The notes: generated by a model not told the origin, from the letters alone. A stretch of 64,000 bases of DNA from a virus (IMGVR_UViG_2925908680_000001), one strand, 5' to 3'; positions 17,470 to 57,854 are shown, counted from the first letter of the stretch. Translations and numbers: made by a program.

Positions 17470-17478
17470 TTTCTAACA
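17470..17478 (-). promoter_or_regulatory. operator-like 9-mer TGTTAGAAA (minus orientation)
   Basis: Member of dispersed motif family (12 sites). Confidence 0.5.
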
Positions 17479-17565
17479 TAGTGTATTTATATACACTGTT
17501 GATCCTGGTGGATGGGATCGAGTAGGATCGCGGTCACTGCTTCGGTAGCGACTGCCAAAAAAAGC

Positions 17566-17590
17566 AAAAGCCGCTGAGAAGCGGCTTTTT
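17566..17590 (+). terminator. rho-independent terminator aaaagccgc-tgagaa-gcggctttt + T-run
   Basis: Classic stem-loop plus U-tract. Confidence 0.85.
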
Positions 17591-17651
17591 GGTGTATAAA
17601 TCCACTGGCATAGATTTATACGGTAGATAGATTTTTTCACGGAGCTATCTG

Positions 17652-18614
17652 GTGAGTATTTTAAATTCAGTTTCAGTAACTTTCAACACTTCTGAGTATA
17701 AAAACAACACTGAATACCACAAAAAAATCAAAGGTCATCAGTTGAGTTTTTTTGCTCGTCATAGCGGTCTTATTTCCCCTTCACATAGCGCCATTATTGC
17801 CGAGTTCGCCAACCTGGCAGGGGCTACCGATGAATACATGATCCGTCGCTCATATGCTGATATGTCCGAGATTACAGGACGCAGTATTTCTACTGTGCGC
17901 CGGGCATTTGCTGAAGCGACGAAGTGCGGAATGCTTGTTAAGCAACATCAGGTAGCGAATAACAATGCCCAGGTGTGTAACGTATATCGGTTTACGACAC
18001 AATTTCTCCACTTCATTCATGTAGCAATGGAGATAGGGGGTAAGCAGGGCATCAAATTTGCCAACGCCACAAAACTGGTTAAGCAGTTGATTTCAAAGGT
18101 TCGTTATTTTTTTGAAACTGGGAACCCCCTGTTCAAATTGAACAAGTCCCCCCATGTTCAAAATGAACAGCCAATAGAAAATAAGAGTCACTCTATAGCC
18201 AAAAGAAGAGAAAGATCATGCGCGGTTCAGCCAAAGGCTTCACCAGCAGATAGTTCTCAAACGGATAACGTGGTACTGGATAAAAAACCAGTAATCAGGG
18301 AAGAACATACCAACCACTGCCTGGCGGCGGCAAAAGCGAGAGCTGCAAAGCGTCGTTCAGACGAGGGGCACGCAAAACGGCAGGCTCTGTATCGTACCGC
18401 TGAAAAGCTGGCAAAAAAATTTGCATGGATACGTAGTGCCGCTACCGCAGTGAATAAGCCTAAACAATCCAATGCCCTGGATTTCTCAATGGATTATTCT
18501 GGCTCCCAGGGGTGTGCAACCATTGGTGAAGCCTTTGACCTGATGAAACAGCGTGGCTATCGGTCTGAATTTGACCGGGAGGATTGGTCAATCCCTGCGG
18601 GATTTAGGGGATGA
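17652..18614 (+). CDS. HTH DNA-binding protein, possible replication initiator (RepL-like?)
   Basis: 320 aa; HTH-like ITGRSISTVRRAFAEATKCGMLV; internal palindromic iteron pair; basic C-terminal half. Confidence 0.3.
   Translation: MSILNSVSVTFNTSEYKNNTEYHKKIKGHQLSFFARHSGLISPSHSAIIAEFANLAGATDEYMIRRSYADMSEITGRSISTVRRAFAEATKCGMLVKQHQVANNNAQVCNVYRFTTQFLHFIHVAMEIGGKQGIKFANATKLVKQLISKVRYFFETGNPLFKLNKSPHVQNEQPIENKSHSIAKRRERSCAVQPKASPADSSQTDNVVLDKKPVIREEHTNHCLAAAKARAAKRRSDEGHAKRQALYRTAEKLAKKFAWIRSAATAVNKPKQSNALDFSMDYSGSQGCATIGEAFDLMKQRGYRSEFDREDWSIPAGFRG
18125..18169. repeat. two tandem palindromes CCCCC-TGTTCAAATTGAACA / CCCCCC-ATGTTCAAAATGAACA inside coding sequence
   Basis: Read directly; 15-bp palindromes 22 bp apart. 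Confidence 0.8.
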
Positions 18615-18668
18615 CCTGTGTGTCTACAAAGCATCCCAATGATCGGAAAATGCCCGCTCGATGATTTA

Positions 18669-18677
18669 TGTTAGAAA
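18669..18677 (+). promoter_or_regulatory. operator-like TGTTAGAAA with inverted partner TTTCTAA at 18690-18696
   Basis: Dispersed motif family; upstream of icd/ant module 1. Confidence 0.55.
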
Positions 18678-18879
18678 ATTAATTTGCTGTTTCTAAATCG
18701 GAATGTATGATCTGCATCATCGACAGAAGTCATCCATTGCTGAAATTTTTAGTTGATCTTCCATGTTTTCAGGCTTATATTCATGCCGTCGTAGCAAATT
18801 CTGCGACCAGGTTTGACAGCCTGAATGTTAGTGCGGACAACCGCAGATTTCCGATATTGCGGTATTTTTGTGTCCGTAA

Positions 18880-19020
18880 ACCGCGTTACGCCCGAATTAT
18901 GGTGGGGCGTGATGGGGAGGCTTCGGCCTGCTGGTTTCACTAACGCCAGTCTGTCAACCCTGTCACGTCCTGCCACCTGTTTGACAGCGGGTAGCAGGTT
19001 GTTAAACCTGTTAGTGAGGC
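18880..19020 (+). ncRNA. candidate C4-type antisense RNA / structured leader upstream of icd-like gene
   Basis: GC-rich hairpins in leader, position equivalent to P1 c4; not verified by covariance model. Confidence 0.3.
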
Positions 19021-19027
19021 CGTAACT

Positions 19028-19252
19028 ATGGTTAATGCCAATCCTTGCTCACGTCCAGAATTCATCTGGCGTTTCCACTCCCTGCAAAAACACTGCGATC
19101 ACTTCGCAATTGCCGCAACCGAAAAAGAAGCCCGTTCTCTGATCCCTGATCAGCATGGTGTTCTTACTGGTCGTTTCTCTACTTCCCCACAACCAAACAC
19201 TAATCCCTGGTATCGCAATATTACCAATCCCGGCATTGCGGAGGCACACTGA
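19028..19252 (+). CDS. Icd-like small protein (cell-division-inhibitor family candidate)
   Basis: 74 aa with EFIWRF motif; paralog at 58655..58870; directly upstream of antirepressor. Confidence 0.45.
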   Translation: MVNANPCSRPEFIWRFHSLQKHCDHFAIAATEKEARSLIPDQHGVLTGRFSTSPQPNTNPWYRNITNPGIAEAH

Positions 19253-19959
19253 TGGATATCTGCATTCTTGAAAAGCCATCAATGACCAGCATTGAGATCG
19301 CGGAGCTGGTGGGAAAACGTCATGACAATGTGAAGCGTACCATTGAAACATTAGCCGAATCCGGCGTTATTGTTCGTCCTCAAATTGAGGATGAACCAAA
19401 AATAGATGTAATGGGGCGTTCTCGATTAATTCAGGTGTTCCGATTTAGCGACGAGCAAGGCAAACGAGACAGCATCATTGTAGTCGCACAGCTTTGTCCT
19501 GAGTTTACTGCCCGGCTGGTGGACCGCTGGCGCGAACTGGAAGAACAAGTACGCCAGCCGTTGACCGAAATAGAGATGATCGCCGCAATGGCTGCAAATG
19601 CAGTTCAGCAGCAAAAGCGGCTTCATGCTGTTGAGTCAAAGGTTAGCCAGGTCGCTGAAACCGTCGAGCAAATCAAGAAGGGCAATATGCCAGATGGCTA
19701 CATTGGCTACCGCCAGCTGGCGGCGAAATGTGGCCTGACTGAAGCCAAATGTCGCAACCTGGTTAACGCTTACCGGATTCCCACCGATACACATGAGTTT
19801 TTAACTCCAGAGGGGGTATTGTCGCGTCGTTCCATCGTGGCCTTATCTCCCTTCATGAATGCTTTTAACCGGATGATGTCGGAGGCTGAACACCGAGGAA
19901 AACGCTGGTATCACCCCAAAATGGGGCAATTCCAGGTGATCGGTTGGGGAGGTGAGTGA
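19252..19959 (+). CDS. antirepressor (Ant/Rha-type N-terminal domain)
   Basis: 235 aa; MTSIEIAELVGKRHDNVKRTIE motif; ATGA coupling to icd-like gene. Confidence 0.6.
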   Translation: MDICILEKPSMTSIEIAELVGKRHDNVKRTIETLAESGVIVRPQIEDEPKIDVMGRSRLIQVFRFSDEQGKRDSIIVVAQLCPEFTARLVDRWRELEEQVRQPLTEIEMIAAMAANAVQQQKRLHAVESKVSQVAETVEQIKKGNMPDGYIGYRQLAAKCGLTEAKCRNLVNAYRIPTDTHEFLTPEGVLSRRSIVALSPFMNAFNRMMSEAEHRGKRWYHPKMGQFQVIGWGGE

Positions 19960-20156
19960 TGGACATCATGCAGGCGGTAAAAAAAATCAGGGAAGGACAG
20001 GCTGAAGTGTGCCGCCGTAAAGCATGGAGTGTTGGTGTATGGGCCTGGCCTGATAATTACTCTACTACCGGATGGTTTTGTATTAATGGACTCCAGATCC
20101 GGGAAGTTGATTTATCGACGGCTGATATAGTCGGTAATGATTGGATCGTGACTTGA
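19959..20156 (+). CDS. DUF2829 (Tad2-like) small protein
   Basis: 65 aa; W...W....DWIV pattern; homologous to C-terminus of second Ant (58870..59811); TGATG coupling. Confidence 0.5.
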   Translation: MDIMQAVKKIREGQAEVCRRKAWSVGVWAWPDNYSTTGWFCINGLQIREVDLSTADIVGNDWIVT

Positions 20157-20164
20157 AGCGTGAT

Positions 20165-20189
20165 GCCCCGGCCTGGCCGGGGCTTTTTT
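20165..20189 (+). terminator. rho-independent terminator gccccggc-ctg-gccggggc + TTTTTT
   Basis: 8-bp GC stem plus U-tract. Confidence 0.85.
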
Positions 20190-20674: not shown

Positions 20675-20825
20675 ATTTTTCTCCCGGTCATGGGTTAATA
20701 AGTAGGCAAACTATGGGGAGTATGTGATTTTGACGGTAGTATCGCCCCCCTGAAAATAACATTCTCCATACCCTCTCAACCGTACCGCATAGCGGAATTT
20801 TTTACGGTTTAGAGGGGGAAATCCT

Positions 20826-23800
20826 TTGGACAAACTACTTCATTCAATCAGTGAAGCCTCCAGCTTAGGCGAACTGATTGAAATTGTTAGTCGGTTGCAT
20901 AAATTACGTGCTGTTGCGACCTTTGGCGTCAGGAAAGCCGATGGCGTCAGTATTCAGAAAACACGCCGGGCAGCAAACAATGCCGCAGTAAATCTTCTTA
21001 ATTCCCTTCCGCCCGGCTTCGATGGGGCGAAATTAACTGACGAACAACGTCAGATTCTTGCTGGGTATACCGGTGAAGGCGGCCTGACAGATGGTGAGGG
21101 CAGCCAATACGAATACTACACGCCACAGTTTATGGCTGAAGGTATATGGGAGCTGTTTGCTGACTACGGTATTGATGGCGGTCACGTACTGGAACCATCA
21201 GCTGGCACGGGTATTTTCCAGGAGACAAAACGGCAGGGAATGATAATGACCAGCGCCGAGCTGTCTCCGATCTCCGGTCGAATCAACCAGCTGTTGCACC
21301 CGGAAGACGATGTGAACATTGGGGCGTTTGAGGCTCTGGCGGCGAAAGACGCAATGTATGACCACGCTGTTGGTAACGTACCGTTTGGCGAAGGCCGTTC
21401 CGGCGTTGCAGGGCTTGATCCGGCATATGCAAACGAGAAGAACGTTGGCAATTACTTTGTGCTGCGCACGATCGACAAGGTTAAACCTGGTGGGCTTATC
21501 GTATTGGTGGTGCCGAATGGCATGACTGATGGTACGAAATACAAAAAATTGCGCGATAAAGTTAGCCGTAAAGCGGAATTTTTGGGCGCGCATCGTATGC
21601 CTTCCGGTACGTTCAGTGAATCAGGTACAGATACCGTGGTGGACGTATGGGTATTGCGTAAACACCCGGAAGCCTTCCTGGAGATGATCCCCGATACGGA
21701 TGATTCGACGCTCAAATCGGCAAACGTCCTTTGGGATACCTTCCTCAAAGGGAAATGGTTTACAACCGAAGGGAAGCGATTTGTTTACGGCGACATGGAA
21801 CGTACCAGCTTCCGCAATACCCTGGTGGTGAAAAAAGACGGTCGTGTATCCAATGAGTCGATGAAAACCGCGCTATCTCGTCGCTTTGATAGTCGCATCA
21901 ATTGGGATTTGCTCGGCGTAACTACTCAGGCATGGCAGGGCGCGAAAGTGGGCGATAAACGCCTTGTAGGCGGTATCTGGCATGAGTTTGATGGTCTGAA
22001 ATGGGTTAAGGACACGACAACCAAATCCTCCGCGCTTGATGTAAGTCGATATGGTGTTTCGACGTTTGGCGATCTGCAGATCGCGTTCCAGTCAACAAAC
22101 GGGATTCTGGCTTTGTCATGGGACCAGATATCGGCGATCGCGTCCGACTATCCATCGGTTGTCAGTGATGAAGTGGCAGCAATGATTCGCTTTGCTGGCA
22201 AGCAGCGAGAAAAAGACAGGGAGCGCGTTATGCGCGGTGCACTGATAGGTCAGTTGATCAACAAGGCACTTGATTTGCGTAACCTGGGGGTGAACGTTGA
22301 TGACAAACTGGCAGATGCATCCCGCTTGGCGGCAGCAGAAGTTGCGAAGTATGGACCACCGCACGCGATTAAGCTGAATGGGCTTGCTGAAGCTGGCGCT
22401 AAAAACTGGATGACGTTCACTGGCAATGTGAAACAGGATGGTTCCACTTCTGACCTTCTGGCAGGGCGACTTGATGTAACGGATGGTGCTGCCGGTATTG
22501 ACTTTACGCGTCCTGAACAAGTGATAGCACATCTTTTTAGTGATGTAGCCCTTAATCCTATAACGCTGGGCGACTTTCGTGAGGCGTTTGCTGGTGAACT
22601 GCCAGAGGACGACGACGCGGTCCTTGAATACCTGGCGAAATTTGATGATATCGCTATTGATGGGTATGGCTGTCTGCTGCCGATGGACCGCGCCACCAGC
22701 GGCGATGTTGCAACCAAAACAGCACTGCTGGTGGGCTGGCGTGATGCGTCAACAGGTGAGCAGAAAGCGAACTTTGAGCGTCAGTTGGCGAAAATCGAAG
22801 AGAAACGCATTTTCACGCCACTAAATAAAGTCACCGTTAATCTGAATGCCCGCTGGCTGGATCGCCGCTTGATAAAAGAGTTCCTGGCAGAGCAGGGCTA
22901 TGACGAGTTTAAGTACACTGAACCTGATCTGAAGGTCGTCGATGGCATTCTGGTATCTCCGGACGATTACGAAGGTAAGGACGGGGTATTTACCGGCTAT
23001 CAGCTACGAACCGTAAACGGCAAAAACGGGAATGAGTTCAAGAAGGCCAACAATAAAGACGGCTTCCTGAACCAGTTAGAAAACTACCTGAACGGTGTTA
23101 AACCGCGTGGGCAGAACGCTAACGAGTACCTGGATAAAATTGCTCAACTGGAAGTTAGCTTTAACGACTGGTTACGCACCCACCCGCAGGCGGATCAGAT
23201 AGCCCGTGACTATAACGACGCATTCAATGGTTTCATTCCGTTCACACATTCTGACGCACCGCTTGGCCTGGAAGGGATTAGTGGAAAGCGCATTCCTCTG
23301 ACTTATCAGAATGAAGAAGTTCGGCGCTTGTCAGAAGATGGGCGTGGCATCATGGGATTTGGTACCGGGCTGGGTAAAACCACGACCGCGCTTGCGCTTG
23401 AGGCGTATAACTTCGAAACAGGTCGCACTAAACGCACGTGTATTGTTGTTCCGAAGGCGGTTTATCAGAACTGGTATCACGAGGCACAGAGTTTCTACAG
23501 TGCTGATGCCTTCGCCAATATGATGTTTATCGGTTTGGATGAAGTTCGTGATGACAGCGGAAATATTCTGACCGCGCCGGTGCTTGATGAAAATGGCGAA
23601 CCACGCCTCGACAGTAACGGGCAGCCTCTTACCAGAAATGTTGTGAAAGAGTCCTCCAGCGCCGTTATCGTTCAGCGTATGAACATGATCCCGTCGTCAA
23701 ATTGGCGAACGGTCATCATGACAAAAGAACAATTCGCGTCTATCCCGCTACGAGAAAAAACCATCGAGGAGAACTCACAGCAAGCTGTCTTTAATGCTGT

Positions 23801-26800
23801 GGAAATGGGGCGTCTTGACCTGGCGTCCGGTAAACACCGTGATGCGCAGAAGAAGAACAAGATTAAGGATCAGGCCGCGAATACCGGTACAACGAAGAAG
23901 CAGAATATCCCGTACTTTGAGGATATGAACTTCGATAGCGTGATTGCCGACGAGGGGCATAACTACCGCAACTCCTTTAATGCCGGGCGTGAAGCGGGAC
24001 AACTGGCATATTTGCCTAACCCGGCAGTATCCAAGATGGCCCGCGACATGGCTGTAAAAGCTGCGTACATGATGAAACGCAACAACGGGCGTGGTGTAGT
24101 CATGCTGACGGCAACTCCGCTGGTGAACAGTCCGATTGATGCCTTCAACATGCTGTCTACTGTCATTCCGCAGGAAGAGTGGATGCGCATGGGCATCATT
24201 ACGCCTGATGATTTCGTTCGTGTGTTTGGCAAAACAGCCACAGTTCAGGTCCAGAAAATTTCCGGGGAAGTGGAAGAGAAGCAGGGGCTGGTGGGCTTCC
24301 AGAACCTTGACGGCCTGCGTGGTATTTTCCATCGTTGGACCACTCTGAAGACTGCTGCAGATGTCGGAGCGACGGTTAAAATTCCCGACATCATCGAGAA
24401 CACCTTGCAGATCCCGATGACAGGGGAGCAGGAGACTGCTTATGAAGAGCTTCGTAAGCGTGCTCAGGAGTTAAGTCGCAATGATGAGCTGACAGTCGAT
24501 GAAAACGGGCATATCACTAACGACAAACCGGATGATTTCATTTTCTCCATCATCCGTGACATGGACAAGGTTGCTATAGACCCGGATCTGTATGCCAGTG
24601 CGATTACATTCCAGTTCCCCGTTGAGCTTGCAGACCAGGTAAAAGCTATTGCTGATGCCTTGCCAAAAGTAGCTGGCGGTAAAGTGGCAGATGATGTTGA
24701 TGAGGCCGAGGAAGACGGCGCTGGCGGGCTGGTCAGTACGCGTACCAGCAAGGTAGTGAAGACCGCTTTTAGTGAACATCCGACGCATGTTGAAATACGT
24801 GCCAGCATTGAACTGGAAGCTGAAATACTGAAGGCCATTGCGGCTGCCGGCATTGATATGCAGCAGGTATCGCACCCCATCCCGCCGAAGTATGCCGCGC
24901 TGATCGAAAATCTTCGTGAAGGTCTGAAGAACGGTAAGCAGATCGTCTTTATTGATGAAAAAGCCCAGCACCAGAAGCTGCGCCGTATTATCGCCAGTGC
25001 ACTGCAAATGCCGGAGCAGGAGATTGGCATTATCAATGCGACGACAGTTAGCCAGGCTGGTGGCATCAAGCTGAAGAAGGTGAATAAGCCGACCGAACCT
25101 ACTCCAAACAAAAACGGTGAATACAAAGAAGGGGCATGGGAAACCTACTACAGCAAACTTGCCCAATATGAGGATTATCTCTCCGCTAAAAATGATGCTG
25201 GCCTTGAGGGCATGGAAGGTATTGCCGCCGACTATAACGAAGGTCGCACGCGCATCATAATCTGTAACAAGAAGGCTGAAGTAGGTATTAACCTGCACAT
25301 CGGGACAACCGATATCCACCACCTGACACTACCCTGGACACCAGCCAGTATCGACCAACGAAATGGGCGCGGTGCGCGCGTAGGTTCACCGCAAGAAAAG
25401 GTCAATGTTCACTACTATTGTGGCAAAGGCACATTCGACGACTTCCGTCTGGATACGCTGAAACGTAAGAAAGACTGGATCAAGATGGTGATGACCTCCG
25501 ACATGTCAGAGATCGCCAATGGTGATGCGGATGATGCTGATGAACGCGCCATTATGCTGGCGGCAAACCCGGAAGAACGCCGCGCAATCATGGCTCGCCA
25601 GGCGCAAGAGCGTGAAGAACGTCTGAAACTGAAAGCACAGCGCGAGGCCAACAATGCTCTCGATATCTACCTGAAAGCGGCAAACGCCGCCGGAAAAGAT
25701 ATCGGCATGATGGAGACAGAACTGAAAAGCGCGATGGAACAGATAGAGTATTACCAGCGAAATCTTGACGACCTGATAAAAGCGGGTACGAACAGGAATG
25801 GGCAAAAATACGCACTTGAGCAGTTGAGTAGCTACAGAAAACGTGCGCGGGTGCTGCGGTTTGCGATCACCAGGGCAAAAGACGCGGATACCATAATGAA
25901 ACGCTCTCGTGGTGATGTGGAGCGCGCTATTAAGTCTGGTGTGCTGGATATCAGTATCGATGTTATTCAGAACCCACAGGAATATATGCGCACTGACAAG
26001 AATATCCTGTTGCATAAAGGTAGTTATTACCGTGCAGTCATTGATGATCGCGAAACAACAGCGATTGTCCGGGTGGAAAAAATTGACGGTGAAAAAGCAC
26101 AATACCTCTGCCGTATCGCCTGGTTGGATAGAGCAAGTCGTTACGCTCGAGCACCGGGGTCAATCGTTACATTGCCGTTTGACTCTGTGATTGAAGCGGT
26201 AACTTTTGAAGAGGGGGTAGCTGAATCGCGCGCAACGGCTGCGCGTGGTGTTCAGTGCCACCAGCTATCAACAATACTTACTCGCGATCAGTTCTATGAT
26301 GCTATTCGCAATGGGGTAATGAATGTTATTGCTGGTAAACCTGGTAATGCATGGGGCGGTGGGTCAGCGATTAAATACTGGGCATATCGCACAGATGATG
26401 GTCAGATCGCGCTGTCATCGGCCTATGATGGCGTGATAGGCCAAAAAATCGGGCGAGCATCGGATATAGCACCTGAGCGATGGATATATCCTGATGGCAA
26501 CGACGAGGCGCTGAAGCGTGAAGTGGCAAAAATACAAGCCAGTGATAACCCGCTGAATATCGTGGACGGCGAGGGATTCCTCCAGGCATTGTATGGGTAT
26601 GATTACATCCAGGGAATGCAGTCATGGGGCGCACAGGCAACGATGGATGATGTTGCCCAGGAGTTCGAAAACTGGATGGCTGGGCGTGGTCTGTCAGGTC
26701 GTTCGCTTAATAAAGTCACTTCTGAAGATATTCTTAGCTTGTTCCGCAAACCGTCCGGAGAAGGTCTGGAATCATTCTGGAGGACCGTGCTGGCATACCG

Positions 26801-27662
26801 TGTATTCCAGGGCAGGATGAAAGCCTTTAGCAATATCGATGATATTGAACGGATGTTTAATCAGGTCAAGATAGCGAAAATTAAGACGAAGATCGAAAAA
26901 ACACGTTCTGCGCTGGTGGCCTGGCGCGATGCATTGTTTGAGCAATATAAATCACTCAGTGATGCAGATGGATGGGCGGCATTGGAACAGCTGGCGAATA
27001 ATGGGGTAGATGGAGCGAAACTAGCCATTGTTCAGGCTGATAACCCCCTGGAATCACCGGCAGCACAGTGGATTAAGGTGGGGGCTGTCATCAATGCATT
27101 TGATGAAAAATACATTAGTAAGGACGATTTTGCTGATGCTGTTTCTGTTAATCGCCTGGTAGAAATGGCTACCCGTCGCGCCCGTGAGTTGAAAGACGGC
27201 GACTATGTGAATGAGTTGCCGGATGCGCTCAAATCGGCAACGTGGCAGGACTATGTATCGCTGAAAAACGGCGGGGCCACTGAATCAGAGATCGCGGAAA
27301 GGCTTGAGCAGGCTGAAAGCAAAAGAGAAGAGCAGGCGGCAGTGGCTGAAGCCAGAGCTGATGAAGCGGCGAATGATGACTATATCATTGTGGTTAATGA
27401 TAAGCCGATTCGCGCTAAGGCGCGTGTTCGCGGGCGCTGGTGGAGCGTCAGCGAGGACGTTGGCGCGGTTTATCTCATTGCCGACCAACCAGGTTCCTCG
27501 ACAATACGGAACGCCAAAGACGCGATTAAGAAGATTGGCGGGCGTTTCTGGAATTTTGAAGCAAACCCGGTTGCTGATGTGAACTTTGACCGTCCTGCAT
27601 GGATGGTATCTACGCGTTACTCGGTAGATGAACTGCGTAAAATAATCGCCGATGCGGCCTAA
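20826..27662 (+). CDS. darB: DarB-like antirestriction protein: N6-adenine methyltransferase + SF2 helicase fusion
   Basis: 2278 aa; SAM motif EPSAGTGIF, catalytic NVPFG, Walker A GFGTGLGKTT, DEGH box, helicase motif VI QRNGRGARVG; strong SD before TTG start. Confidence 0.75.
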   Translation: MDKLLHSISEASSLGELIEIVSRLHKLRAVATFGVRKADGVSIQKTRRAANNAAVNLLNSLPPGFDGAKLTDEQRQILAGYTGEGGLTDGEGSQYEYYTPQFMAEGIWELFADYGIDGGHVLEPSAGTGIFQETKRQGMIMTSAELSPISGRINQLLHPEDDVNIGAFEALAAKDAMYDHAVGNVPFGEGRSGVAGLDPAYANEKNVGNYFVLRTIDKVKPGGLIVLVVPNGMTDGTKYKKLRDKVSRKAEFLGAHRMPSGTFSESGTDTVVDVWVLRKHPEAFLEMIPDTDDSTLKSANVLWDTFLKGKWFTTEGKRFVYGDMERTSFRNTLVVKKDGRVSNESMKTALSRRFDSRINWDLLGVTTQAWQGAKVGDKRLVGGIWHEFDGLKWVKDTTTKSSALDVSRYGVSTFGDLQIAFQSTNGILALSWDQISAIASDYPSVVSDEVAAMIRFAGKQREKDRERVMRGALIGQLINKALDLRNLGVNVDDKLADASRLAAAEVAKYGPPHAIKLNGLAEAGAKNWMTFTGNVKQDGSTSDLLAGRLDVTDGAAGIDFTRPEQVIAHLFSDVALNPITLGDFREAFAGELPEDDDAVLEYLAKFDDIAIDGYGCLLPMDRATSGDVATKTALLVGWRDASTGEQKANFERQLAKIEEKRIFTPLNKVTVNLNARWLDRRLIKEFLAEQGYDEFKYTEPDLKVVDGILVSPDDYEGKDGVFTGYQLRTVNGKNGNEFKKANNKDGFLNQLENYLNGVKPRGQNANEYLDKIAQLEVSFNDWLRTHPQADQIARDYNDAFNGFIPFTHSDAPLGLEGISGKRIPLTYQNEEVRRLSEDGRGIMGFGTGLGKTTTALALEAYNFETGRTKRTCIVVPKAVYQNWYHEAQSFYSADAFANMMFIGLDEVRDDSGNILTAPVLDENGEPRLDSNGQPLTRNVVKESSSAVIVQRMNMIPSSNWRTVIMTKEQFASIPLREKTIEENSQQAVFNAVEMGRLDLASGKHRDAQKKNKIKDQAANTGTTKKQNIPYFEDMNFDSVIADEGHNYRNSFNAGREAGQLAYLPNPAVSKMARDMAVKAAYMMKRNNGRGVVMLTATPLVNSPIDAFNMLSTVIPQEEWMRMGIITPDDFVRVFGKTATVQVQKISGEVEEKQGLVGFQNLDGLRGIFHRWTTLKTAADVGATVKIPDIIENTLQIPMTGEQETAYEELRKRAQELSRNDELTVDENGHITNDKPDDFIFSIIRDMDKVAIDPDLYASAITFQFPVELADQVKAIADALPKVAGGKVADDVDEAEEDGAGGLVSTRTSKVVKTAFSEHPTHVEIRASIELEAEILKAIAAAGIDMQQVSHPIPPKYAALIENLREGLKNGKQIVFIDEKAQHQKLRRIIASALQMPEQEIGIINATTVSQAGGIKLKKVNKPTEPTPNKNGEYKEGAWETYYSKLAQYEDYLSAKNDAGLEGMEGIAADYNEGRTRIIICNKKAEVGINLHIGTTDIHHLTLPWTPASIDQRNGRGARVGSPQEKVNVHYYCGKGTFDDFRLDTLKRKKDWIKMVMTSDMSEIANGDADDADERAIMLAANPEERRAIMARQAQEREERLKLKAQREANNALDIYLKAANAAGKDIGMMETELKSAMEQIEYYQRNLDDLIKAGTNRNGQKYALEQLSSYRKRARVLRFAITRAKDADTIMKRSRGDVERAIKSGVLDISIDVIQNPQEYMRTDKNILLHKGSYYRAVIDDRETTAIVRVEKIDGEKAQYLCRIAWLDRASRYARAPGSIVTLPFDSVIEAVTFEEGVAESRATAARGVQCHQLSTILTRDQFYDAIRNGVMNVIAGKPGNAWGGGSAIKYWAYRTDDGQIALSSAYDGVIGQKIGRASDIAPERWIYPDGNDEALKREVAKIQASDNPLNIVDGEGFLQALYGYDYIQGMQSWGAQATMDDVAQEFENWMAGRGLSGRSLNKVTSEDILSLFRKPSGEGLESFWRTVLAYRVFQGRMKAFSNIDDIERMFNQVKIAKIKTKIEKTRSALVAWRDALFEQYKSLSDADGWAALEQLANNGVDGAKLAIVQADNPLESPAAQWIKVGAVINAFDEKYISKDDFADAVSVNRLVEMATRRARELKDGDYVNELPDALKSATWQDYVSLKNGGATESEIAERLEQAESKREEQAAVAEARADEAANDDYIIVVNDKPIRAKARVRGRWWSVSEDVGAVYLIADQPGSSTIRNAKDAIKKIGGRFWNFEANPVADVNFDRPAWMVSTRYSVDELRKIIADAA

Positions 27663-28135: not shown

Positions 28136-28396
28136 ATGCGAAAGAATCGTAGGTTTACGGTCGAAGACCTAAAGGAATATTCCATATCGAAGGGGTATAT
28201 CCTTGAGTTCCACCGATACAAGAAGGTTTTTACGCTGCGAAAAGCAGAAAACCCTGCGAACTGGAGCTGGATATACTTTCCTCACACCGATGATAAGTTG
28301 GTAGAACTTGTTGATGATTTAACCTATGAAGGTTGGTTGATCGCAATCGACAAGACAATCAAAGAATTATCCGAACAGGATAAAATAACCCTTTAA
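28136..28396 (+). CDS. hypothetical protein
   Basis: 86 aa ORF, 3-nt spacing from previous. Confidence 0.4.
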   Translation: MRKNRRFTVEDLKEYSISKGYILEFHRYKKVFTLRKAENPANWSWIYFPHTDDKLVELVDDLTYEGWLIAIDKTIKELSEQDKITL

Positions 28397-28532: not shown

Positions 28533-29027
28533 TTGTTGTTATTATTTCGCATATTTACTATCAATGGGTGTGTTAGAAAAATAGCGCGAAAGAGAAGGCG
28601 TCGCAGTGAATATTCTGAAACATCCCCACATGCCGCAGCTCTTAGAGAACTGGAGAAAAACCCAGATCTAATCAAAAGGAACCATGAGCATTACGAGCAG
28701 GTTCGCGTCCTGGACTGGTTGTATCGCAATATGCGTTATGTGTATGAGCATACTCACGCCACTCCAAACGGTGGCCTGCGAGGCATAAGGACGGCAATAA
28801 AAATGGTGGCAGAGGGCCAAAAGAAGGGATATCCCGATCTTTCTATAGACCTTGCTTGTGGGGGATACCACGGAATGCGCATTGAGATGAAACATGGGAG
28901 AAATCGCCTGACTCCCGAACAACTCGTCTGGATGACCCGCCTCACTGAAGCCGGTTACTACTGCTTTGAGGCGCGCAGTGCCGCTGAAGCCATAAAAGCT
29001 ATCACGGAGTATGTTTGTCTTGATTAA
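28533..29027 (+). CDS. VRR-NUC domain nuclease (start uncertain)
   Basis: C-terminal GYPDLSIDLACGGYHGMRIEMK pattern typical of VRR-NUC; operator-like 9-mer lies inside the annotated 5' end, so true start is probably downstream. Confidence 0.55.
   Translation: MLLLFRIFTINGCVRKIARKRRRRSEYSETSPHAAALRELEKNPDLIKRNHEHYEQVRVLDWLYRNMRYVYEHTHATPNGGLRGIRTAIKMVAEGQKKGYPDLSIDLACGGYHGMRIEMKHGRNRLTPEQLVWMTRLTEAGYYCFEARSAAEAIKAITEYVCLD
28571..28579 (+). promoter_or_regulatory. operator-like TGTTAGAAA
   Basis: Dispersed motif family. Confidence 0.45.
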
Positions 29028-29041
29028 ACGGAGAAATCGTT

Positions 29042-29242
29042 TTGCGTTTACTTAACGTGGCAGAACTTATCCCTGCAGGAACTAATGCTATCGCTCGTCG
29101 TCGCTCATGGCAGCAGGCTCTATGTATTGAGATCTCGAAACGTATCAATGGAAGTTTTGAAGCTCGCAATATTGTTACTGGCGATAAGGTTCACATAACC
29201 CCGGAAAGTGCAAGCGCTGATGATTGGGAGTTTGTACATTGA
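29042..29242 (+). CDS. hypothetical protein
   Basis: 66 aa ORF. Confidence 0.3.
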   Translation: MRLLNVAELIPAGTNAIARRRSWQQALCIEISKRINGSFEARNIVTGDKVHITPESASADDWEFVH

Positions 29243-29538
29243 GCAAAAAATATTATGTGAGTCTGGCGTTCGCTGACGATGCGGGGAGGACGCGGAGTAT
29301 CACGTTGAGCACGCCGGTTAAGGCTGTGACAGCGCCGTTAATCCGTGAAGCTCTCAGAGAGCTGGAATTGGGGGAAAACTCGGCACTGTTGTCGGTTAGT
29401 TGGTTAGGGAAAATGTCAGAGAAGCAATACGTGAATGGAGTTACCCCAATAACAGTAATGAGGCTACTTTCATTGCTGCAATGGGCCATCGTACCTGTAT
29501 TTATCGCGTATCTTATTTATCAGGCTGCAACACAGTAA
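29224..29538 (+). CDS. hypothetical protein with C-terminal TM helix
   Basis: 104 aa ORF followed by strong terminator. Confidence 0.35.
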   Translation: MGVCTLSKKYYVSLAFADDAGRTRSITLSTPVKAVTAPLIREALRELELGENSALLSVSWLGKMSEKQYVNGVTPITVMRLLSLLQWAIVPVFIAYLIYQAATQ

Positions 29539-29613: not shown

Positions 29614-29622
29614 TGTTAGAAA
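29614..29622 (+). promoter_or_regulatory. operator-like TGTTAGAAA
   Basis: Dispersed motif family; 30 bp upstream of 29652 ORF. Confidence 0.55.
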
Positions 29623-29651
29623 ACTAATTTAACAAGGTGACGGGAACAGCA

Positions 29652-30860
29652 ATGAGTCAACACACTGATACTTCTAATCTGGAAATTATCTCGACAGCAA
29701 TTGAAACGCTGCGCACACAAATCGCTCTTATACAGAAACGGAATCCGGGTGATGACCTGTCAAAGCGACTGCACGAGAGTGTCATTGCCACTACAGATAA
29801 CCTGGTGGCGGAAATCAACAAGCTGCTTGATGATGGGGCAGTTGATTACAATAAGCTGGTGGATCAGTTTGAGGAATACCAACAAGCCGTTAATGATGGC
29901 TTGATCCGTTTTTCACAAGTCACAGGCGTATCAGCGACAGTTGAAAGCCTGGGTGATGCAGTTAATCAATTTGCCGCGAATATGCGTAATGAGATCGGCA
30001 ATCTGGAAGCGCGTCTTGAACAGGCAAATACACTGCGTAAATCTGCCGAAGCCGATTTGAACCGTTACAAAAAAGACTATCCGCCCAGCCTGACAAAGCG
30101 GCTGGATGTTGCGGAGAAGGATAACCGCACGCTGAAAAGAGAGCGCCGGGAACTAAAAGAGCGTTTAACCAAGCTCAATCAGCAATGCATTGATTATCAA
30201 GGCGAAGGCGTCACACTGCGTAAAAAGTTGGCTACAGCGCAGAGCATTATCGAAACATTAAAGCGAGAGTGCTCACAGCTTGGTCACGATCTGAACCGTG
30301 CTTGTGGCATGGGACAAAGACCAGAGACATTTCCACTTATGTATGATGGAAGGGATGCCATTGCCTACATCCATGAGTATCCGCACGGCCTGGTTGCGGA
30401 AACTGGGCAGCGTGGCGAAGCACTGCTGACGGCTAATTACCATCAACAAATCAGAACCAATCGCCTGTTAACGATGGATGTGATCCCATCGGTATGGGGA
30501 ACGCCGCTTTACTATCGCCTGCCGGGCTTCGAAAAGGACTGGAATACCGACATAGACGAATGTCTCGCAGATAAAATTATGGCGTACCTGGAGACGGATT
30601 TTCCGCGCTTATATCGCCGGATTATGGACTCTAAGGATGCGCCAATCGATGAATTAAAAATGCGTCCGGAGACGCTGGAGGCAATCAAGCAGACGGAGTT
30701 TGATACTGTATTCAGTGTGGCCTGCATTCCAAGCTGTTTCCATGAAAGCATCCCGTTCATGCAAGGAGATCGTCGTCAGGAAATCCTTGACGCTTGCCGG
30801 GTATGGGCGAACGAATGGGATAAGAAGAATGGGGGTGTAGAAGATCTTTATGGGAAATAA
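29652..30860 (+). CDS. coiled-coil protein of unknown function, operator-bracketed
   Basis: ATG at 29652 (ORF track GTG at 29637); N-terminal coiled coil, C-terminal globular domain. Confidence 0.5.
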   Translation: MSQHTDTSNLEIISTAIETLRTQIALIQKRNPGDDLSKRLHESVIATTDNLVAEINKLLDDGAVDYNKLVDQFEEYQQAVNDGLIRFSQVTGVSATVESLGDAVNQFAANMRNEIGNLEARLEQANTLRKSAEADLNRYKKDYPPSLTKRLDVAEKDNRTLKRERRELKERLTKLNQQCIDYQGEGVTLRKKLATAQSIIETLKRECSQLGHDLNRACGMGQRPETFPLMYDGRDAIAYIHEYPHGLVAETGQRGEALLTANYHQQIRTNRLLTMDVIPSVWGTPLYYRLPGFEKDWNTDIDECLADKIMAYLETDFPRLYRRIMDSKDAPIDELKMRPETLEAIKQTEFDTVFSVACIPSCFHESIPFMQGDRRQEILDACRVWANEWDKKNGGVEDLYGK

Positions 30861-30862: not shown

Positions 30863-30871
30863 TGTTAGAAA
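30863..30871 (+). promoter_or_regulatory. operator-like TGTTAGAAA
   Basis: Dispersed motif family. Confidence 0.5.
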
Positions 30872-31018
30872 TCTAAAATCACAATCCGAATGTATTGATT
30901 GTGAAGATAACTTAACATAGAATTTTCCTTGCTGGTGGGCGGTACCCACGTTTCGCTTGCTGGGCTTGATAGTCACTTATTGGTTATTGTTCTCCCACCA
31001 GCATTTAACAAATTAAAG

Positions 31019-31027
31019 TGTTAGAAA
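31019..31027 (+). promoter_or_regulatory. operator-like TGTTAGAAA
   Basis: Dispersed motif family. Confidence 0.5.
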
Positions 31028-39834: not shown

Positions 39835-40863
39835 ATGAGTGAATTAATTATCTCTGGCAGTTCCGGTGGTTTTCTGCGCAACATTGGCAAAGAGTACCAG
39901 GAAGCCGCAGAAAACTTTATTCGGTTCATGAATGACCAGGGGGCTTATGCGCCGAATACACTGCGCGACCTCCGGTTAGTGTTTCATTCCTGGGCGCGCT
40001 GGTGTCACGCTCGCCAGCTTGCCTGGTTTCCGATCTCACCAGAAATGGCCCGCGAGTATTTTCTTCAGCTGCATGATGCCGATCTGGCTTCGACCACCAT
40101 TGATAAGCACTACGCCATGCTGAACATGCTGCTTTCGCATTGTGGCCTTCCGCCACTTTCGGATGATAAAAGTGTTTCTCTGGCTATGCGGCGCATCCGG
40201 CGCGAAGCGGCAACTGAAAAAGGCGAACGAACAGGCCAGGCTATTCCTTTGCGGTGGGATGATCTGAAACTGATCGACGTCCTGTTGTCCAGGTCAGAAC
40301 GGCTGGTGGACCTGCGCAACCGGGCTTTTCTCTTTGTTGCATACAATACGCTGATGCGTATGTCGGAAATCTCGCGTATTCGCATAAGAGATCTGGACCA
40401 AACAGGTGACACTGTCACGTTGCATATTTCACACACGAAGACAATAACGACCGCAGCCGGGCTTGATAAGGTGCTTTCCCGTCGCACTACTGCTGTGCTG
40501 AATGACTGGCTGGAGGCTTCCGGGCTTCGTGAACATCCTGACGCGGTGCTGTTCCCGCCGGTACACCGTAGCAATAAGGCCAGGATTACGGCAACGCCCC
40601 TTACTGCGCCTGCAATGGAGAAAATATTCAGCGACGCCTGGGTGTTGCTGAATAAAGGAGATGCTACGCCAAACAAAGGAAGATACCGGACGTGGACCGG
40701 GCATAGTGCACGCGTCGGGGCCGCTATCGATATGGCTGAAAAGCAGGTATCTATGGTGGAGATTATGCAGGAAGGAACCTGGAAGAAACCGGAAACACTT
40801 ATGCGGTATCTGCGCCGTGGCGGCGTGTCTGTGGGGGCTAATAGCCGCCTGATGGATTTGTGA
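39835..40863 (+). CDS. dre: Dre tyrosine site-specific recombinase (Cre family)
   Basis: 342 aa; MSELIISGSSGGFLRNIG... N-terminus; Cre-like catalytic block WTGHSARVGAAIDMA...MRYLR. Confidence 0.9.
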   Translation: MSELIISGSSGGFLRNIGKEYQEAAENFIRFMNDQGAYAPNTLRDLRLVFHSWARWCHARQLAWFPISPEMAREYFLQLHDADLASTTIDKHYAMLNMLLSHCGLPPLSDDKSVSLAMRRIRREAATEKGERTGQAIPLRWDDLKLIDVLLSRSERLVDLRNRAFLFVAYNTLMRMSEISRIRIRDLDQTGDTVTLHISHTKTITTAAGLDKVLSRRTTAVLNDWLEASGLREHPDAVLFPPVHRSNKARITATPLTAPAMEKIFSDAWVLLNKGDATPNKGRYRTWTGHSARVGAAIDMAEKQVSMVEIMQEGTWKKPETLMRYLRRGGVSVGANSRLMDL

Positions 40864-40869
40864 ATTAAA

Positions 40870-40878
40870 TTTCTAACA
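40870..40878 (-). promoter_or_regulatory. operator-like TGTTAGAAA (minus orientation) just after dre
   Basis: Dispersed motif family. Confidence 0.5.
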
Positions 40879-52561: not shown

Positions 52562-52574
52562 TGCATTGTTCCCA

Positions 52575-53570
52575 TCAGTTATTGAACGTGATCACTCCGC
52601 GCTCGATGGCGAAGTCGAAAAGCTGGTTGGCGGCTACGTAAAGGCGTATGCCATGTGCTTTTTCCCATGCCCGGACATCGTTTTCTGCGCTTCTGGCGCA
52701 TTCATCGCAAAGAGGAACGGCCCAGCGATCGTGTTCGTTTAACGAGCGGGCGCGGTACATGAACGGGTGGTTAACTTTGCCACCGCATCCGATGCACGGA
52801 CGAGAAACCACAAACCGGAGATAAGCCGGGCTTTTACCGAGGACCGCTTTTGGTCGGCGCATATACAGCAGGCCAGAATCCTCATCTACAGACAGGTTGA
52901 CGATCTGCTCTGCGGTTATGTCCACCAGCTCGCGCGTACTGCGCTCCCAGGTGATATCTGATTCTTTCAGCGTACCGGTAGGGATGTCAGTTTTTGGCTG
53001 ACAAAATGCAATGCGACCAGCTTCATCAGGCAGTTCGTCTTTAAGATTCCGGCGAATGGCCCAAAAGGTGAGTTCAACCATGCTCAGATCGCGATCTGGC
53101 GGAAGTTTTAACTCGCTGGCAGCCCAGTTCATAATCCAGTTGGCGCGATTCAGTGACAGTTGGTCTTCCAGCTTGCCGTATCCCTTCATCATGTATTCCG
53201 CATCATGCTTCCAGCACAGGCGAACGGCAGAACCGTTATAGAAGTGAGTGGTTAGCTGGTGGCTACAATCGCGCTTATCATGCGCCTGGCAATCGTGAAT
53301 GTTGGTGCTAACCCAGTGAACGATAGAATCCTCGCCACCTAACGCATTAAATACGCGCTCACTTTGAAAAAAGGGTGTCAGTGACTGGTTGGCAACCAGG
53401 GAATAATTCAGGTCCACGACGCCATCAGGGGTGTTTTCAGCCTGTTCGCGCGGCAATGGGGAGATAAGAAAACGGCGACCGGCGCCGATGTAATTGCTGG
53501 TGGGCTTATCTACAGGAAAGACAGCCACACCAGTTTCATTTACGACATATGGGGTGATTATTGCACTCAT
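52575..53570 (-). CDS. hypothetical protein (DUF968-like, C-terminal Cys cluster)
   Basis: 331 aa; CIGCGG...CDEC pattern. Confidence 0.4.
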   Translation of the reverse strand: MSAIITPYVVNETGVAVFPVDKPTSNYIGAGRRFLISPLPREQAENTPDGVVDLNYSLVANQSLTPFFQSERVFNALGGEDSIVHWVSTNIHDCQAHDKRDCSHQLTTHFYNGSAVRLCWKHDAEYMMKGYGKLEDQLSLNRANWIMNWAASELKLPPDRDLSMVELTFWAIRRNLKDELPDEAGRIAFCQPKTDIPTGTLKESDITWERSTRELVDITAEQIVNLSVDEDSGLLYMRRPKAVLGKSPAYLRFVVSRPCIGCGGKVNHPFMYRARSLNEHDRWAVPLCDECARSAENDVRAWEKAHGIRLYVAANQLFDFAIERGVITFNN

Positions 53571-53612
53571 AATGCATACCGACTCTGTTTTGTTCCGAGC
53601 GGTAAAATAATA

Positions 53613-53621
53613 TGTTAGAAA
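53613..53621 (+). promoter_or_regulatory. operator-like TGTTAGAAA with inverted partner TCTAACA at 53636-53642
   Basis: Dispersed motif family; inside leftward operon gap. Confidence 0.55.
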
Positions 53622-53674
53622 ATTAAAATCAACAATCTAACACGATTTTGAGCGCGTAAACGATGTAACCCGGC

Positions 53675-55757: not shown

Positions 55758-56065
55758 TCGTTGCAGATGAAAACGTTGTCCCCGGCAATTAACTTTTTAA
55801 CGGTGTGCTGGGATTTGTTGCAGAAGCTGCAATAAAGCGTTGGACTGGCTGATACGGATTGTGCGCCAGATGTCAGCCGCGCGATGTCGTTCTTGCGACG
55901 CAATATCACACGGCTGCACTCGACCAGCATCTCCGGGGATATCTTCTCCTCCGTAGCGAGCGTTTCTAATCGTTCGAGTATGTGGAAGGCTTTTTCCTGG
56001 GTAATCCTGGGTAATTCAGCGTTACGCTCTGCCAGTTGTGCGGGCGTTAAACCTTCAGACTTCAT
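55703..56065 (-). CDS. protein with ClpX-type C4 zinc-binding domain
   Basis: [32 protein letters not shown] closely resembles ClpX N-terminal ZBD. Confidence 0.55.
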
Positions 56066-56372
56066 ACACTCTCCTTTCGAAATAAACGTACTGATTAATC
56101 ATGCCCAGGGGCATTTCGAGTTTTTCCGCGATCTCACGGCGGGGAACACCACACTGATGAAGCTGCCGTGCCAGTTCTATATCGCTCTGCCGGTATTTGG
56201 CTGACGGATGAAAGTCTCCTTTCAGAATCATGCTGATCCCCAGCTCCCGCGCTTTAGTCCTGACGGCATCACCGGTACGACCGATCAGCTTCCCAATACT
56301 CTCTACCGTCATAGTTCCGGCGCACTGGCGGAGTATCATGATTTCTGCCCTTCCCCATCCCCGCCAGCTCAC
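56055..56372 (-). CDS. small HTH-like protein
   Basis: 105 aa; two helix-turn-helix-like segments. Confidence 0.35.
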
Positions 56373-56992
56373 GCCGACATCCTCTGAGACATAAACTCCA
56401 CAAAACGAACTGCATCTTCAGAAACAACGCCGCATGACTTCAGATAATTCATTGCGTCATCAGGTAGCGGATTAGTTGGTTCGGCATTTGCCAGGGATTG
56501 AGATAAACGCGTGATTAATTTGACCATTCTCCGCTGCCGGAGGTTGTATCCTTCAGCTAAAGACAGGTAACTGGAAAGGGTATTGCTTAAGCGGGCGCGA
56601 AGCTGATCCGTGCCGTGACATTCAATAGCAACATCACGTAACGCATCGACCAGTTCACGGTAAAGATGCGCTGCCATTCTGCAATCTGTGTCAGATGGTG
56701 CTTCATAAATTACCGTCAACCCCAGTTTTTCAGCCAGAGCGTGTTCTGCACGTGCTCCTGCGGACACATCCCATCCCTTAAGCAGATAGATCGCATCAGC
56801 AGAACGCACCATTGCCAGGCAAATATCCATGTATTCACTCTGACAAAGGCCACCAGGTAACACAGCTGGATTCAGAACGATATGCCCTTCAGCCATCAGC
56901 TCGCTCGCTTTCGCATTAAACGCCGCACGGTTGTAATCTGGATAACCAGTCATCGGCCCCGCGATGTAAATTTTCAAAACACGTTTCACCAT
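56369..56992 (-). CDS. DUF4406 / nucleoside 2-deoxyribosyltransferase-like domain protein
   Basis: IYIAGPMTG...W..S.GA..E N-terminal pattern; start at M10 coupled (TGATG) to upstream small ORF. Confidence 0.45.
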   Translation of the reverse strand: MVKRVLKIYIAGPMTGYPDYNRAAFNAKASELMAEGHIVLNPAVLPGGLCQSEYMDICLAMVRSADAIYLLKGWDVSAGARAEHALAEKLGLTVIYEAPSDTDCRMAAHLYRELVDALRDVAIECHGTDQLRARLSNTLSSYLSLAEGYNLRQRRMVKLITRLSQSLANAEPTNPLPDDAMNYLKSCGVVSEDAVRFVEFMSQRMSA

Positions 56993-57148
56993 CAAAATTT
57001 CCCCAAAATCGTGACGCAAAACATAAGCACTGCGAAAAGCTCAATACCAAGCTCAAGTAGCGCCAACGCCCCGAAAAACAACACATAGAACAGGCCAATC
57101 TCATTCACAGATGGCTGGTGGATCGCACTTAAAGCTATAAGCATCATG
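56992..57148 (-). CDS. 51-aa hydrophobic peptide, first gene of leftward operon
   Basis: GGAGGA SD before ATGATG; MMLIALSAIHQPSVNEIGLFYVLFFGALALLELGIELFAVLMFCVTILGKF; below ORF-track size cutoff. Confidence 0.4.
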
Positions 57149-57186
57149 TCCTCCAAACAGTTATCAGGAATGATATTAATGTTTTG

Positions 57187-57195
57187 TGTTAGAAA
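57187..57195 (+). promoter_or_regulatory. operator-like TGTTAGAAA in divergent promoter region
   Basis: Between leftward operon start and ref-like gene. Confidence 0.55.
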
Positions 57196-57264
57196 ATCAA
57201 TTTTGAATATCTAATCATTTTGATCAATCATAGAAAAATCGCTGAAAAGTAAGAGGCAGCCATC

Positions 57265-57843
57265 ATGCAGAAACAGAGCTATTGGGAGAAACAGAGACAA
57301 AAAGCCATGCAAAAATTGGCTGACCCAGCCTGGCGAGAGGAACAAAGGGCAAAGCGCCTTCAACAAGCTCAACGCCAGCAGCAGCGAGCGAGAGAAAAAG
57401 CCGCATCGCCTGAATATCGGCAAAAGAAAATTGAAAAAGCAAAGCAATATGAACAGCGGAGAAAAGATAAAGCTGTATCCGCTCCGTCCAAAAAAACACG
57501 CACGTCACGCGGCCTGAAAGGCAGATCACTCACAGCCGATGAACGCCGGATACAGACCGCTATCGGTGCTCTCCCCTGCATTGCCTGCCATATTCACGGG
57601 CAACATAGCCCAGTGGTATCCCTGCACCATATCTTCGGGAGAACGGCAGAGAACGCACATAGATATGTCCTCCCTTTGTGTAAATGGCACCACCAGTACG
57701 CAGCGCCAGCCGAGGTCCGAGAACAATATCCCTGGCTGGTCCCTGTTCATGCTGACGGAAAAATAGGCGGAAAAGCAGATTTCATGCGGCACAATGCCGA
57801 TGAAATGACGTTGTATCAGATGGCGATTGAATTGATAAATTAG
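57265..57843 (+). CDS. Ref-like HNH endonuclease (recombination enhancement function family)
   Basis: 192 aa; Lys/Arg/Gln-rich N-terminal 90 aa then CIACHIHGQH...HHIFG...LCKWHH HNH core. Confidence 0.6.
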   Translation: MQKQSYWEKQRQKAMQKLADPAWREEQRAKRLQQAQRQQQRAREKAASPEYRQKKIEKAKQYEQRRKDKAVSAPSKKTRTSRGLKGRSLTADERRIQTAIGALPCIACHIHGQHSPVVSLHHIFGRTAENAHRYVLPLCKWHHQYAAPAEVREQYPWLVPVHADGKIGGKADFMRHNADEMTLYQMAIELIN

Positions 57844-57845
57844 TT

Positions 57846-57854
57846 TTCTAACAT
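57846..57854 (-). promoter_or_regulatory. operator-like TGTTAGAAA (minus orientation)
   Basis: Dispersed motif family. Confidence 0.5.

Follow-up and report, generated by a model that had tools for sequence, protein, structure and literature searches.

The 64,000-nucleotide stretch of the virus genome IMGVR_UViG_2925908680_000001 analyzed here (the window, taken at its whole length) carries a nine-nucleotide word, TGTTAGAAA, scattered in either orientation over more than 40 kb, and the question raised by this locus is which protein, if any, reads the word. Between 28 and 42 kb the window is ~98% identical to Escherichia phage D6, a P1-like plasmid prophage (MF356679 / NC_050154; immC fragment AY753669), and ~90 E. 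coli and Salmonella plasmids likewise match this region. The initial annotation, made from the sequence alone, proposed that the copies form a repressor operator network following the dispersed C1 operator logic of phage P1 in a different sequence. The evidence assembled below makes it highly probable that the sites are the operators of the D6-type C1 repressor encoded at 38403–39440 and constitute the heteroimmune counterpart of the P1 network.

The repeated word and its geometry

The window contains 11 exact copies of TGTTAGAAA, against 0.49 ± 0.67 expected from dinucleotide-preserving shuffles (shuffle maximum 3), so the word does not occur at the frequency of a chance 9-mer. Ten of the eleven exact positions first listed stand as given, and the eleventh lies at 57845 rather than 57846 (Table 1; sites are named by the position of their core). 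Under a Markov null built from D6 non-coding DNA only, 0.13–0.30 copies are expected (P ≤ 4e-14), and the AT-rich composition of intergenic DNA therefore does not explain the enrichment. An unbiased enrichment scan of all 9-mers ranks the word second in the window, behind Chi; run on P1, the scan likewise brings up Chi and the established C1 operator, a validation of the approach.

Aligned in one orientation, the sites yield an asymmetric consensus of 16–17 nt, rTGTTAGAAAwnTAAtt, with nine invariant positions, a purine 5’ of the core and w-n-T-A-A-w-t 3’ of it. The AT-rich 3’ extension described initially is real, with T-A-A at positions +3 to +5 past the core in 10, 11 and 9 of the 11 exact sites, respectively. 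A 25-nt position weight matrix (PWM) built from these 11 sites sets 12 sites (scores 19.7–34.7) apart from background (next best 10.7), the twelfth being the one-mismatch variant already suspected at 35027 (TATTAGAAA, minus strand, 35027–35035, 79 nt upstream of lpa). As a class, near matches are at chance level (22 9-mers with at most one mismatch vs 15.3 ± 3.4 simulated), and only context-backed variants are consequently counted; acceptance of every one-mismatch 9-mer as a site was rejected because their frequency equals chance. One such variant, a weaker site upstream of c1 at 39542–39550 (TTTTAGAAA), is backed by conservation and adds a thirteenth to the twelve sites of the initial annotation. 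The whole D6 genome holds 15 sites, compared with 12–13 in the window, and all 12 of the PWM-separated window sites have D6 orthologs; the repL site has one mismatch in D6 (TGTTAGCAA) and is perfect in the window. The D6 GenBank records label c1 ‘prophage repressor’ and contain no operator or protein-binding features. Leaving aside the 2018 D6 genome paper, the searched full texts and records hold no prior description of the operator word, of the bivalent geometry described next, or of the allele variants described below.

Four of the 13 sites (18669, 35027, 53613 and 57187) are bivalent, where two with an inverted partner had been counted at first. Each has an inverted partner CTAA exactly at offset 25 (p = 3.8e-7), giving a unit TGTTAG-N18-CTAAYA with a fixed 30-bp span and the AT-rich parts in the center. 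The 30-bp geometry recurs in relatives, for example at 6 of 11 sites of a plasmid with an 80% identical C1 allele. In P1 Obanab, two operators are likewise inverted relative to each other and overlap in their AT-rich tails; the unit measures 28 bp, compared with 30 bp for the window pairs.

Other symmetries are present near the word. Sites 17470 and 29614 alone read TGTTA-N11-TAACA, a 21-bp symmetry with a shared TTAACAAGG tail that is unlike the 30-bp pairs; it is not conserved in the relatives with 90% and 80% alleles and is possibly due to chance. Operator half-words also form the near-palindrome TGTTAGTAAGGTACCTAACA (TGTTAG-N8-CTAACA) at 33649–33668, just past tRNA-Met, at a spacing far shorter than that of the 30-bp pairs. 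A perfect 7-bp inverted repeat, AGTGTAT-TTAT-ATACACT (17480–17497), abuts the repL operator and could be a second regulator’s site or a piece of lytic origin control.

Site placement and correspondence with P1

The P1 C1 repressor is reported to bind 22 operators that are dispersed and share a 17-bp asymmetric consensus (PMC8546580), and P1 ref, ban, ssb, dmt and kilA are under C1 control and induced on C1 inactivation (PMC4713147). The window sites are likewise dispersed, ~17 bp long and asymmetric. When the C1 operators (protein_bind features) and late promoters of P1 are extracted from AF234172, the site positions correspond to the annotated P1 C1 operators unit by unit (Table 1), bearing out the P1-like logic suggested at the outset. 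The P1 and P7 operators were formerly named Op2, Op21, Op51, Op53, Op68, Op72, Op82, Op83, Op86, Op88, Op94 and Op99 (immC). The D6 annotation, from which the window gene map was taken, and Rfam matches to C4 confirm the initial placement of sites before c1, lpa, ref, the leftward early operon and both icd/ant modules, and identify the ‘unknown coiled-coil gene’ flanked by sites on both sides as a pmgS homolog. P1 has one immI module and the window two, c4-a1b1 with C4 (18775–18980) and isrK with C4 (58390–58600), each followed by an icd/antirepressor pair. Sites 18669 and 57845 lie upstream of these c4 RNA/icd/ant modules, the former 106 nt upstream of the a1b1 element; the distance from P1 Oc4 to a1 is 115 nt.

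In both networks a specific core has an AT-rich tail and either orientation is used, and the window sites are predicted to overlap early promoters as those of P1 do; the recognition word differs, rTGTTAGAAAwnTAAtt in the window and D6 versus ATTGCTCTAATAAATTT in P1. Reciprocal PWM scans give no cross-matches, in agreement with the early remark that the word does not resemble the P1 consensus: no P1-type operator is found in the window or D6 (best score 13.1 vs at least 17 for genuine P1 sites), and no D6-type site in P1 (best score 12.5, inside res). Because P1 and D6 both infect E. coli and each lacks the other’s site type, specificity must be phage-encoded, which supports the different immunity specificity proposed initially; a word unlike that of P1 would place the D6-type phages in a separate immunity group. 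The D6 and P1 operators can be aligned in two ways: in the same direction, with TG.T..AA.A in common, in keeping with the bivalent geometry, or in reverse, with TTAGA in common, in keeping with a family-wide conservation of TTAGA(A/G).

Although 89.8% of D6 is coding, 14 of its 15 sites are non-coding (binomial p = 1.8e-13, curated table of coding sequences), and the initial placement of the sites in gaps holds except for site 28571, which is considered below. Relative to the downstream gene, seven sites are parallel and six antiparallel, both c1 sites counted; the occurrence of both orientations fits operators and not promoter elements. A strict consensus scan places a sigma-70-like promoter near three sites, ~20 nt upstream of 28571 and just downstream of 35027 and of 30863 (30895–30923 for the latter, with the tRNA cluster further downstream). 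With a lenient log-odds scorer, a plausible promoter facing the downstream gene overlaps most operators, which span +10 to +26 at c1 (best predicted c1 promoter), −5 to +11 at pmgS, −32 to −16 at pdcB (−32 to −13 across its candidate promoters), −29 to −13 at repL and −37 to −21 at the leftward operon; the repL operator falls inside the spacer of the candidate promoter TTGTTA-16-TAGTGT. This predicted overlap would fit repression by occlusion or roadblock. Beyond the 13 sites, a doubtful degenerate site lies upstream of mat; an Enterobacter relative has a full site in the matching gap, and P1 has Omat and LPmat before mat.

Table 1. Candidate operators with their P1 counterparts, and other features of the window
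Feature	Position	Strand	Core	P1 counterpart	Remarks
repL (lytic replication) operator	17462–17478	−	17470	OrepL	exact core
Bivalent c4 operator, immI module 1	18669–18698	+	18669	Oc4	exact core; partner TTTCTAAAT at offset 22–30
pmgM 5’-end operator	28571–28587	+	28571	O26 + Oppp, flanking pmgL-pmgM	exact core, kept in relatives; weakest 3’ extension
pmgS operator, directly upstream	29614–29630	+	29614	OpmgRa/b, annotated ‘controls expression of pmgR and pmgS’	exact core; top PWM score, 34.7
Operator heading tRNA/tci region	30863–30879	+	30863	Obanab, ahead of tRNA-tci-ban operon	exact core; 3 nt past pmgS stop
Second operator before tRNA/tci region	31019–31035	+	31019	Obanab	exact core; overlaps candidate promoter TTAACA-19-TATAGT
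Bivalent lpa operator	35006–35035	−	35027	Olpa	core TATTAGAAA; in-register partner CGTTAG
c1-proximal operator	39452–39468	−	39460	Oc1	exact core; 11 nt upstream of c1 start region
Second, weaker c1 operator	39542–39558	+	39542	Oc1	TTTTAGAAA; one mismatch; conservation
Operator between dre stop and orf117-dut-isaA operon	40862–40878	−	40870		exact core
Bivalent operator, ppp-pdcB gap	53613–53642	+	53613		exact core; in-register partner AATCTAACA; paired also in D6 and relatives
Bivalent operator, divergent gap ref / leftward early operon	57187–57216	+	57187	Oref	exact core; in-register CTAA partner
Operator at ref stop codon	57837–57853	−	57845	Omat, likewise overlapping ref stop	exact core; upstream of orf86/85-isrK-C4-icd-ant module 2
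hrdC-dcm-dam operator (D6)				Odmt	35 nt upstream; beyond the window
Doubtful degenerate site upstream of mat	61236–61252	+			TGTTACAAA; PWM score only 10.7
Operator as single duplex sequence					TGTTAGAAAACTAATTT; ATATGTTAGAAAACTAATTT
pro	16453–17463				
repL	17652–18614				
c4-a1b1 target element	18775–18827				Rfam
C4 antisense RNA	18895–18980				Rfam
icd/ant, first pair	19028–19959				
darB	20826–27662				
pmgM	28533–29027				VRR-NUC protein
pmgR	29224–29538				
pmgS	29637–30860				
Five tRNA genes	32097–33583				
lpa	35114–35506				
pacA/pacB	35503–38375				
c1	38403–39440	−			
dre	39835–40863				Cre-like recombinase
pdcB	52575–53570	−			
ref	57265–57843				
C4 antisense RNA	58513–58600				Rfam
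icd/ant, second pair	58655–59811				
AAATCACAAACTG box	1941–1953, 9461–9473, 13257–13269, 14704–14716, 61327–61339	+			
AAATCACAAACTG box	20718–20730	−			
AAATCACAAACTG box, two mismatches	30876–30888	+			overlaps 3’ tail of operator 30863

Several other repeats are found in the window. Chi, GCTGGTGG, is present in 39 copies (25 on the plus and 14 on the minus strand) vs ~2 expected, an excess found equally in P1, D6 and every relative fetched. A 222-bp tandem repeat (3118–4022; 4.1 copies, 94% matches) lies inside the tail-fiber gene, comparable to the repeated elements in P1 S, and a CACAAC hexanucleotide array (12528–12577; 8.3 copies) lies inside dar-region coding sequence. The pmgS product, whose gene has operators on both sides, is labeled prohead scaffold in D6, and the NCBI pipeline names its homologs in Leclercia and Pantoea (L011 24350–25645; L012 29629–30918) ‘RNA polymerase alpha C-terminal domain-containing protein’. 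With an alpha-CTD-like domain and presumably early, C1-controlled expression, this protein might act in transcription control instead of morphogenesis.

The candidate repressor and competing explanations

The c1 open reading frame (ORF) codes for 345 residues that are 100% identical to D6 C1, and the C1-like label first given to it is borne out by distant homology to P1 C1. An exhaustive search returns one small family of 59 representatives, the same as that of P1 C1, and P1 C1 matches 48 of 67 collected members of the C1 family. The order pacB-c1-rox-recombinase is that of P1, and homology together with the position between pacB and the lox-recombinase locus assigns the protein to the P1-type repressors. 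D6-type C1 is ~60–100 residues longer than P1 C1, with an extra C-terminal helical region of roughly 100 residues that is absent from the P1-size class.

Comparisons across PLSDB, in which 149 plasmids encode a D6-type repressor, connect the word to this gene. The C1 alleles are discrete, at ~100, 90, 80, 70, 68, 42 and 30% identity, and one plasmid per allele class was compared over ±20 kb around c1. From the 90% down to the 68% allele, TGTTAGAAA is retained at orthologous gaps. The 42% allele (Enterobacter) retains the core YGTTAGAAAAT with an altered 3’ extension. With the 30% allele (Leclercia) the D6 word is absent, and CCTTAGAATCTA-type sites occur instead after the recombinase gene, upstream of c1, after pmgS and before pmgM. 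In Pantoea and Acinetobacter (28–29%), targeted inspection identifies TTAGAA-containing sites at c1, at lpa, on both sides of pmgS and after the recombinase gene; whole-sequence k-mer enrichment gave no clear word in these plasmids, and their motif definitions are accordingly tentative. TTAGA is common to the motif of every allele. Alignment of the c1 upstream regions from six allele classes presents the motif as an invariant island with diverging flanks, and it includes the second c1 site, which lies 82 bp upstream of the first and inverted relative to it; the TTTTCTAA block of this second site is kept in all alleles, and the 42% allele has a full-consensus site there. The lpa upstream regions similarly contain an invariant motif island together with its inverted partner, and the site at the dre stop is kept in all relatives, as a variant motif in Leclercia, Pantoea and Acinetobacter. 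In these sequence comparisons, the motif tracks the C1 allele.

A resistance plasmid carries part of this system. Salmonella Typhi pK91 (NZ_CP029871) is a conjugative IncFIB plasmid with qnrS1, blaTEM-1, sul2 and tetA that bears only a D6-like fragment consisting of c1 (68% allele), recombinase, dut, phd/doc, hot and humD, and it keeps two operators flanking the recombinase-c1 gap.

Several points weigh against the assignment of the sites to C1. Both the binding of C1 to the sites and repression by that binding are steps that we infer. The C1 homolog has only 21% identity to P1 C1 over 240 residues (BLASTP, E = 2e-8), no match in a local copy of Pfam and no recognizable DNA-binding domain in its predicted fold; to our knowledge, the C1 family has no solved structure and no recognizable DNA-binding fold. 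In P1, C1 activity is modulated by the antirepressor Coi, encoded upstream of c1, and the co-repressor Lxc/Bof, encoded after ulx. At the sequence level neither homolog is detected in the window: the c1-dre gap has no ORF above 55 residues, and an 86-residue ORF in the lxc position does not align to P1 Lxc. These absences and an operator unlike ATTGCTCTAATAAATTT separate the element from the P1/P7 specificity group, and control of C1 activity may differ from that of P1. Site 28571 lies inside the annotated TTG-start pmgM ORF, at codons 13–16; PmgM homology to the P1 protein starts only at residue 29, and no in-frame alternative start that would leave the site outside the ORF was found. Promoter assignments rest on weak consensus matches, and since the strict scan places few promoters near sites, the claim of promoter overlap depends on the lenient scorer. 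Finally, covariation would look alike for any other phage protein diverging in step with C1. The 86-residue ORF itself (28136–28396) occupies the exact P1 lxc position, after darB-ulx, and may either be unrelated to lxc or encode a co-repressor that is not homologous to Lxc.

An indirect link between motif and C1, and a C1 model without a recognizable DNA-binding fold, leave room for another binder, either a different phage regulator (an antirepressor of the Rha/Roi/KilA type or a small unannotated DNA-binding protein) or a host nucleoid protein. In AT content the sites resemble targets of H-NS or IHF, and the regulatory region of P1 ref is bound by H-NS (PMC4713147). A host factor, however, cannot account for the difference in word between P1 and D6 at orthologous positions, given that both infect E. 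coli, or for the change of the word from one phage lineage to another, and nine invariant positions are far above the specificity of H-NS or IHF. The site positions are moreover those bound by C1 in P1, and two sites bracket the c1 promoter region, as is typical of autoregulation. A binder other than C1 is thus improbable.

Even less credence is due to the view that the sites are late promoters or binding sites of the late activator Lpa. In P1, late operons are marked by a conserved box at −22 together with a −10 hexamer. In favor of this view, an Lpa homolog is encoded in the window (PF25716, E = 5e-57), genes called ‘morphogenetic’ (pmgM, pmgS) follow some of the sites, and TGnTAGAAA has a superficial likeness to an extended −10 element. 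However, TAGAAA, read as the −10 hexamer, does not end in the conserved T, the orientation of the sites relative to the downstream gene is mixed, and in P1 it is C1 operators that flank pmgR/pmgS and pmgM. No site precedes the tail-fiber, baseplate, lysis/dar, portal, darB or pac operons; the late-operon gaps carry instead a different box, AAATCACAAACTG, followed by a −10-like hexamer (nine matches with at most two mismatches vs 2.6 expected).

The AAATCACAAACTG box heads the tail-fiber R, lydA, ddrB, portal, peptidoglycan hydrolase and mat units, where the operator motif is absent, and is probably the D6-type Lpa-dependent late promoter box, unlike the AAGTNACTT box of P1. A sole P1-type late box is present at 62333–62355 (AAGTCACTT at 62343–62351), ~100 nt upstream of gene 26/25, with a PWM score of 24.5, a value that genuine late promoters of P1 also reach. 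One phage therefore seems to carry late boxes of two kinds.

It is scarcely credible that the repeats descend from a small repeated or mobile element, or that AT-rich intergenic composition produced them by accident and they regulate nothing: the sites are AT-rich and intergenic, and one-mismatch variants occur at chance frequency, but the enrichment holds against the non-coding null, the sites are conserved islands between diverged flanks, the partner sites keep a fixed register, and similarity between copies ends ~10 nt from the core (information content reaches background ~8–10 nt to either side), which excludes an origin from a repeated element such as a repetitive extragenic palindrome or a miniature inverted-repeat transposable element.

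Proposed regulation and comparison with known systems

With the sites assigned to the D6-type C1, regulation can be outlined as follows. In the prophage state, C1 would occupy the ~13 dispersed, asymmetric 16–17 bp sites in the window (15 in D6), every one of which would overlap or closely flank a sigma-70 promoter of an early or regulatory unit. It would thereby shut off repL, both c4-icd-ant modules, lpa, ref, the leftward early operon, pmgM/pmgS and the tRNA/tci region, and would autoregulate c1. Loss of C1 activity, probably via the two Ant modules, would free all of these units at once, and Lpa would then activate the late operons, which bear a different promoter box.

It is possible, although on balance doubtful, that D6-type C1 is more than P1 C1 with an altered recognition part and also self-associates, with cooperative binding or DNA looping among the dispersed sites; the TTAGA core and its lineage-specific flanks would then serve as an operator code. 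The extra C-terminal region, the failure to detect Coi and Lxc, the 30-bp pairs and the inverted c1 sites 82 bp apart would all fit a self-associating repressor. If this is true, immunity groups could be predicted from the operator code throughout the phage-plasmids, a class with many carriers of resistance genes.

Plasmid prophages of the D6 kind are frequent in E. coli and Salmonella, and some are mosaic with resistance plasmids. For these elements the operator word offers a sequence-only route to a map of the early regulon, and it sorts them into immunity groups, with at least three motif variants tracking C1 alleles. It also enables the design of operator-titration or reporter experiments, and it offers a comparative approach to DNA recognition by the C1 family, which is poorly understood. 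For P1, titration by operators on a multicopy plasmid is reported to reduce lysogenization or induce the prophage (PMC8546580).

The closest comparisons are with lambda and P1. As with lambda CI/Cro, a prophage repressor would silence early lytic promoters and autoregulate its own gene. Lambda operators, however, are clustered, palindromic and dimer-bound at two or three control regions, whereas most of those in the window stand singly, and they are asymmetric and dispersed along more than 40 kb among a dozen promoters. The logic of this network is that of textbook P1, and the operator word leaves the picture of the P1-type immunity mechanism unchanged; that a D6-type repressor should use a word different from that of P1 is expected rather than surprising.

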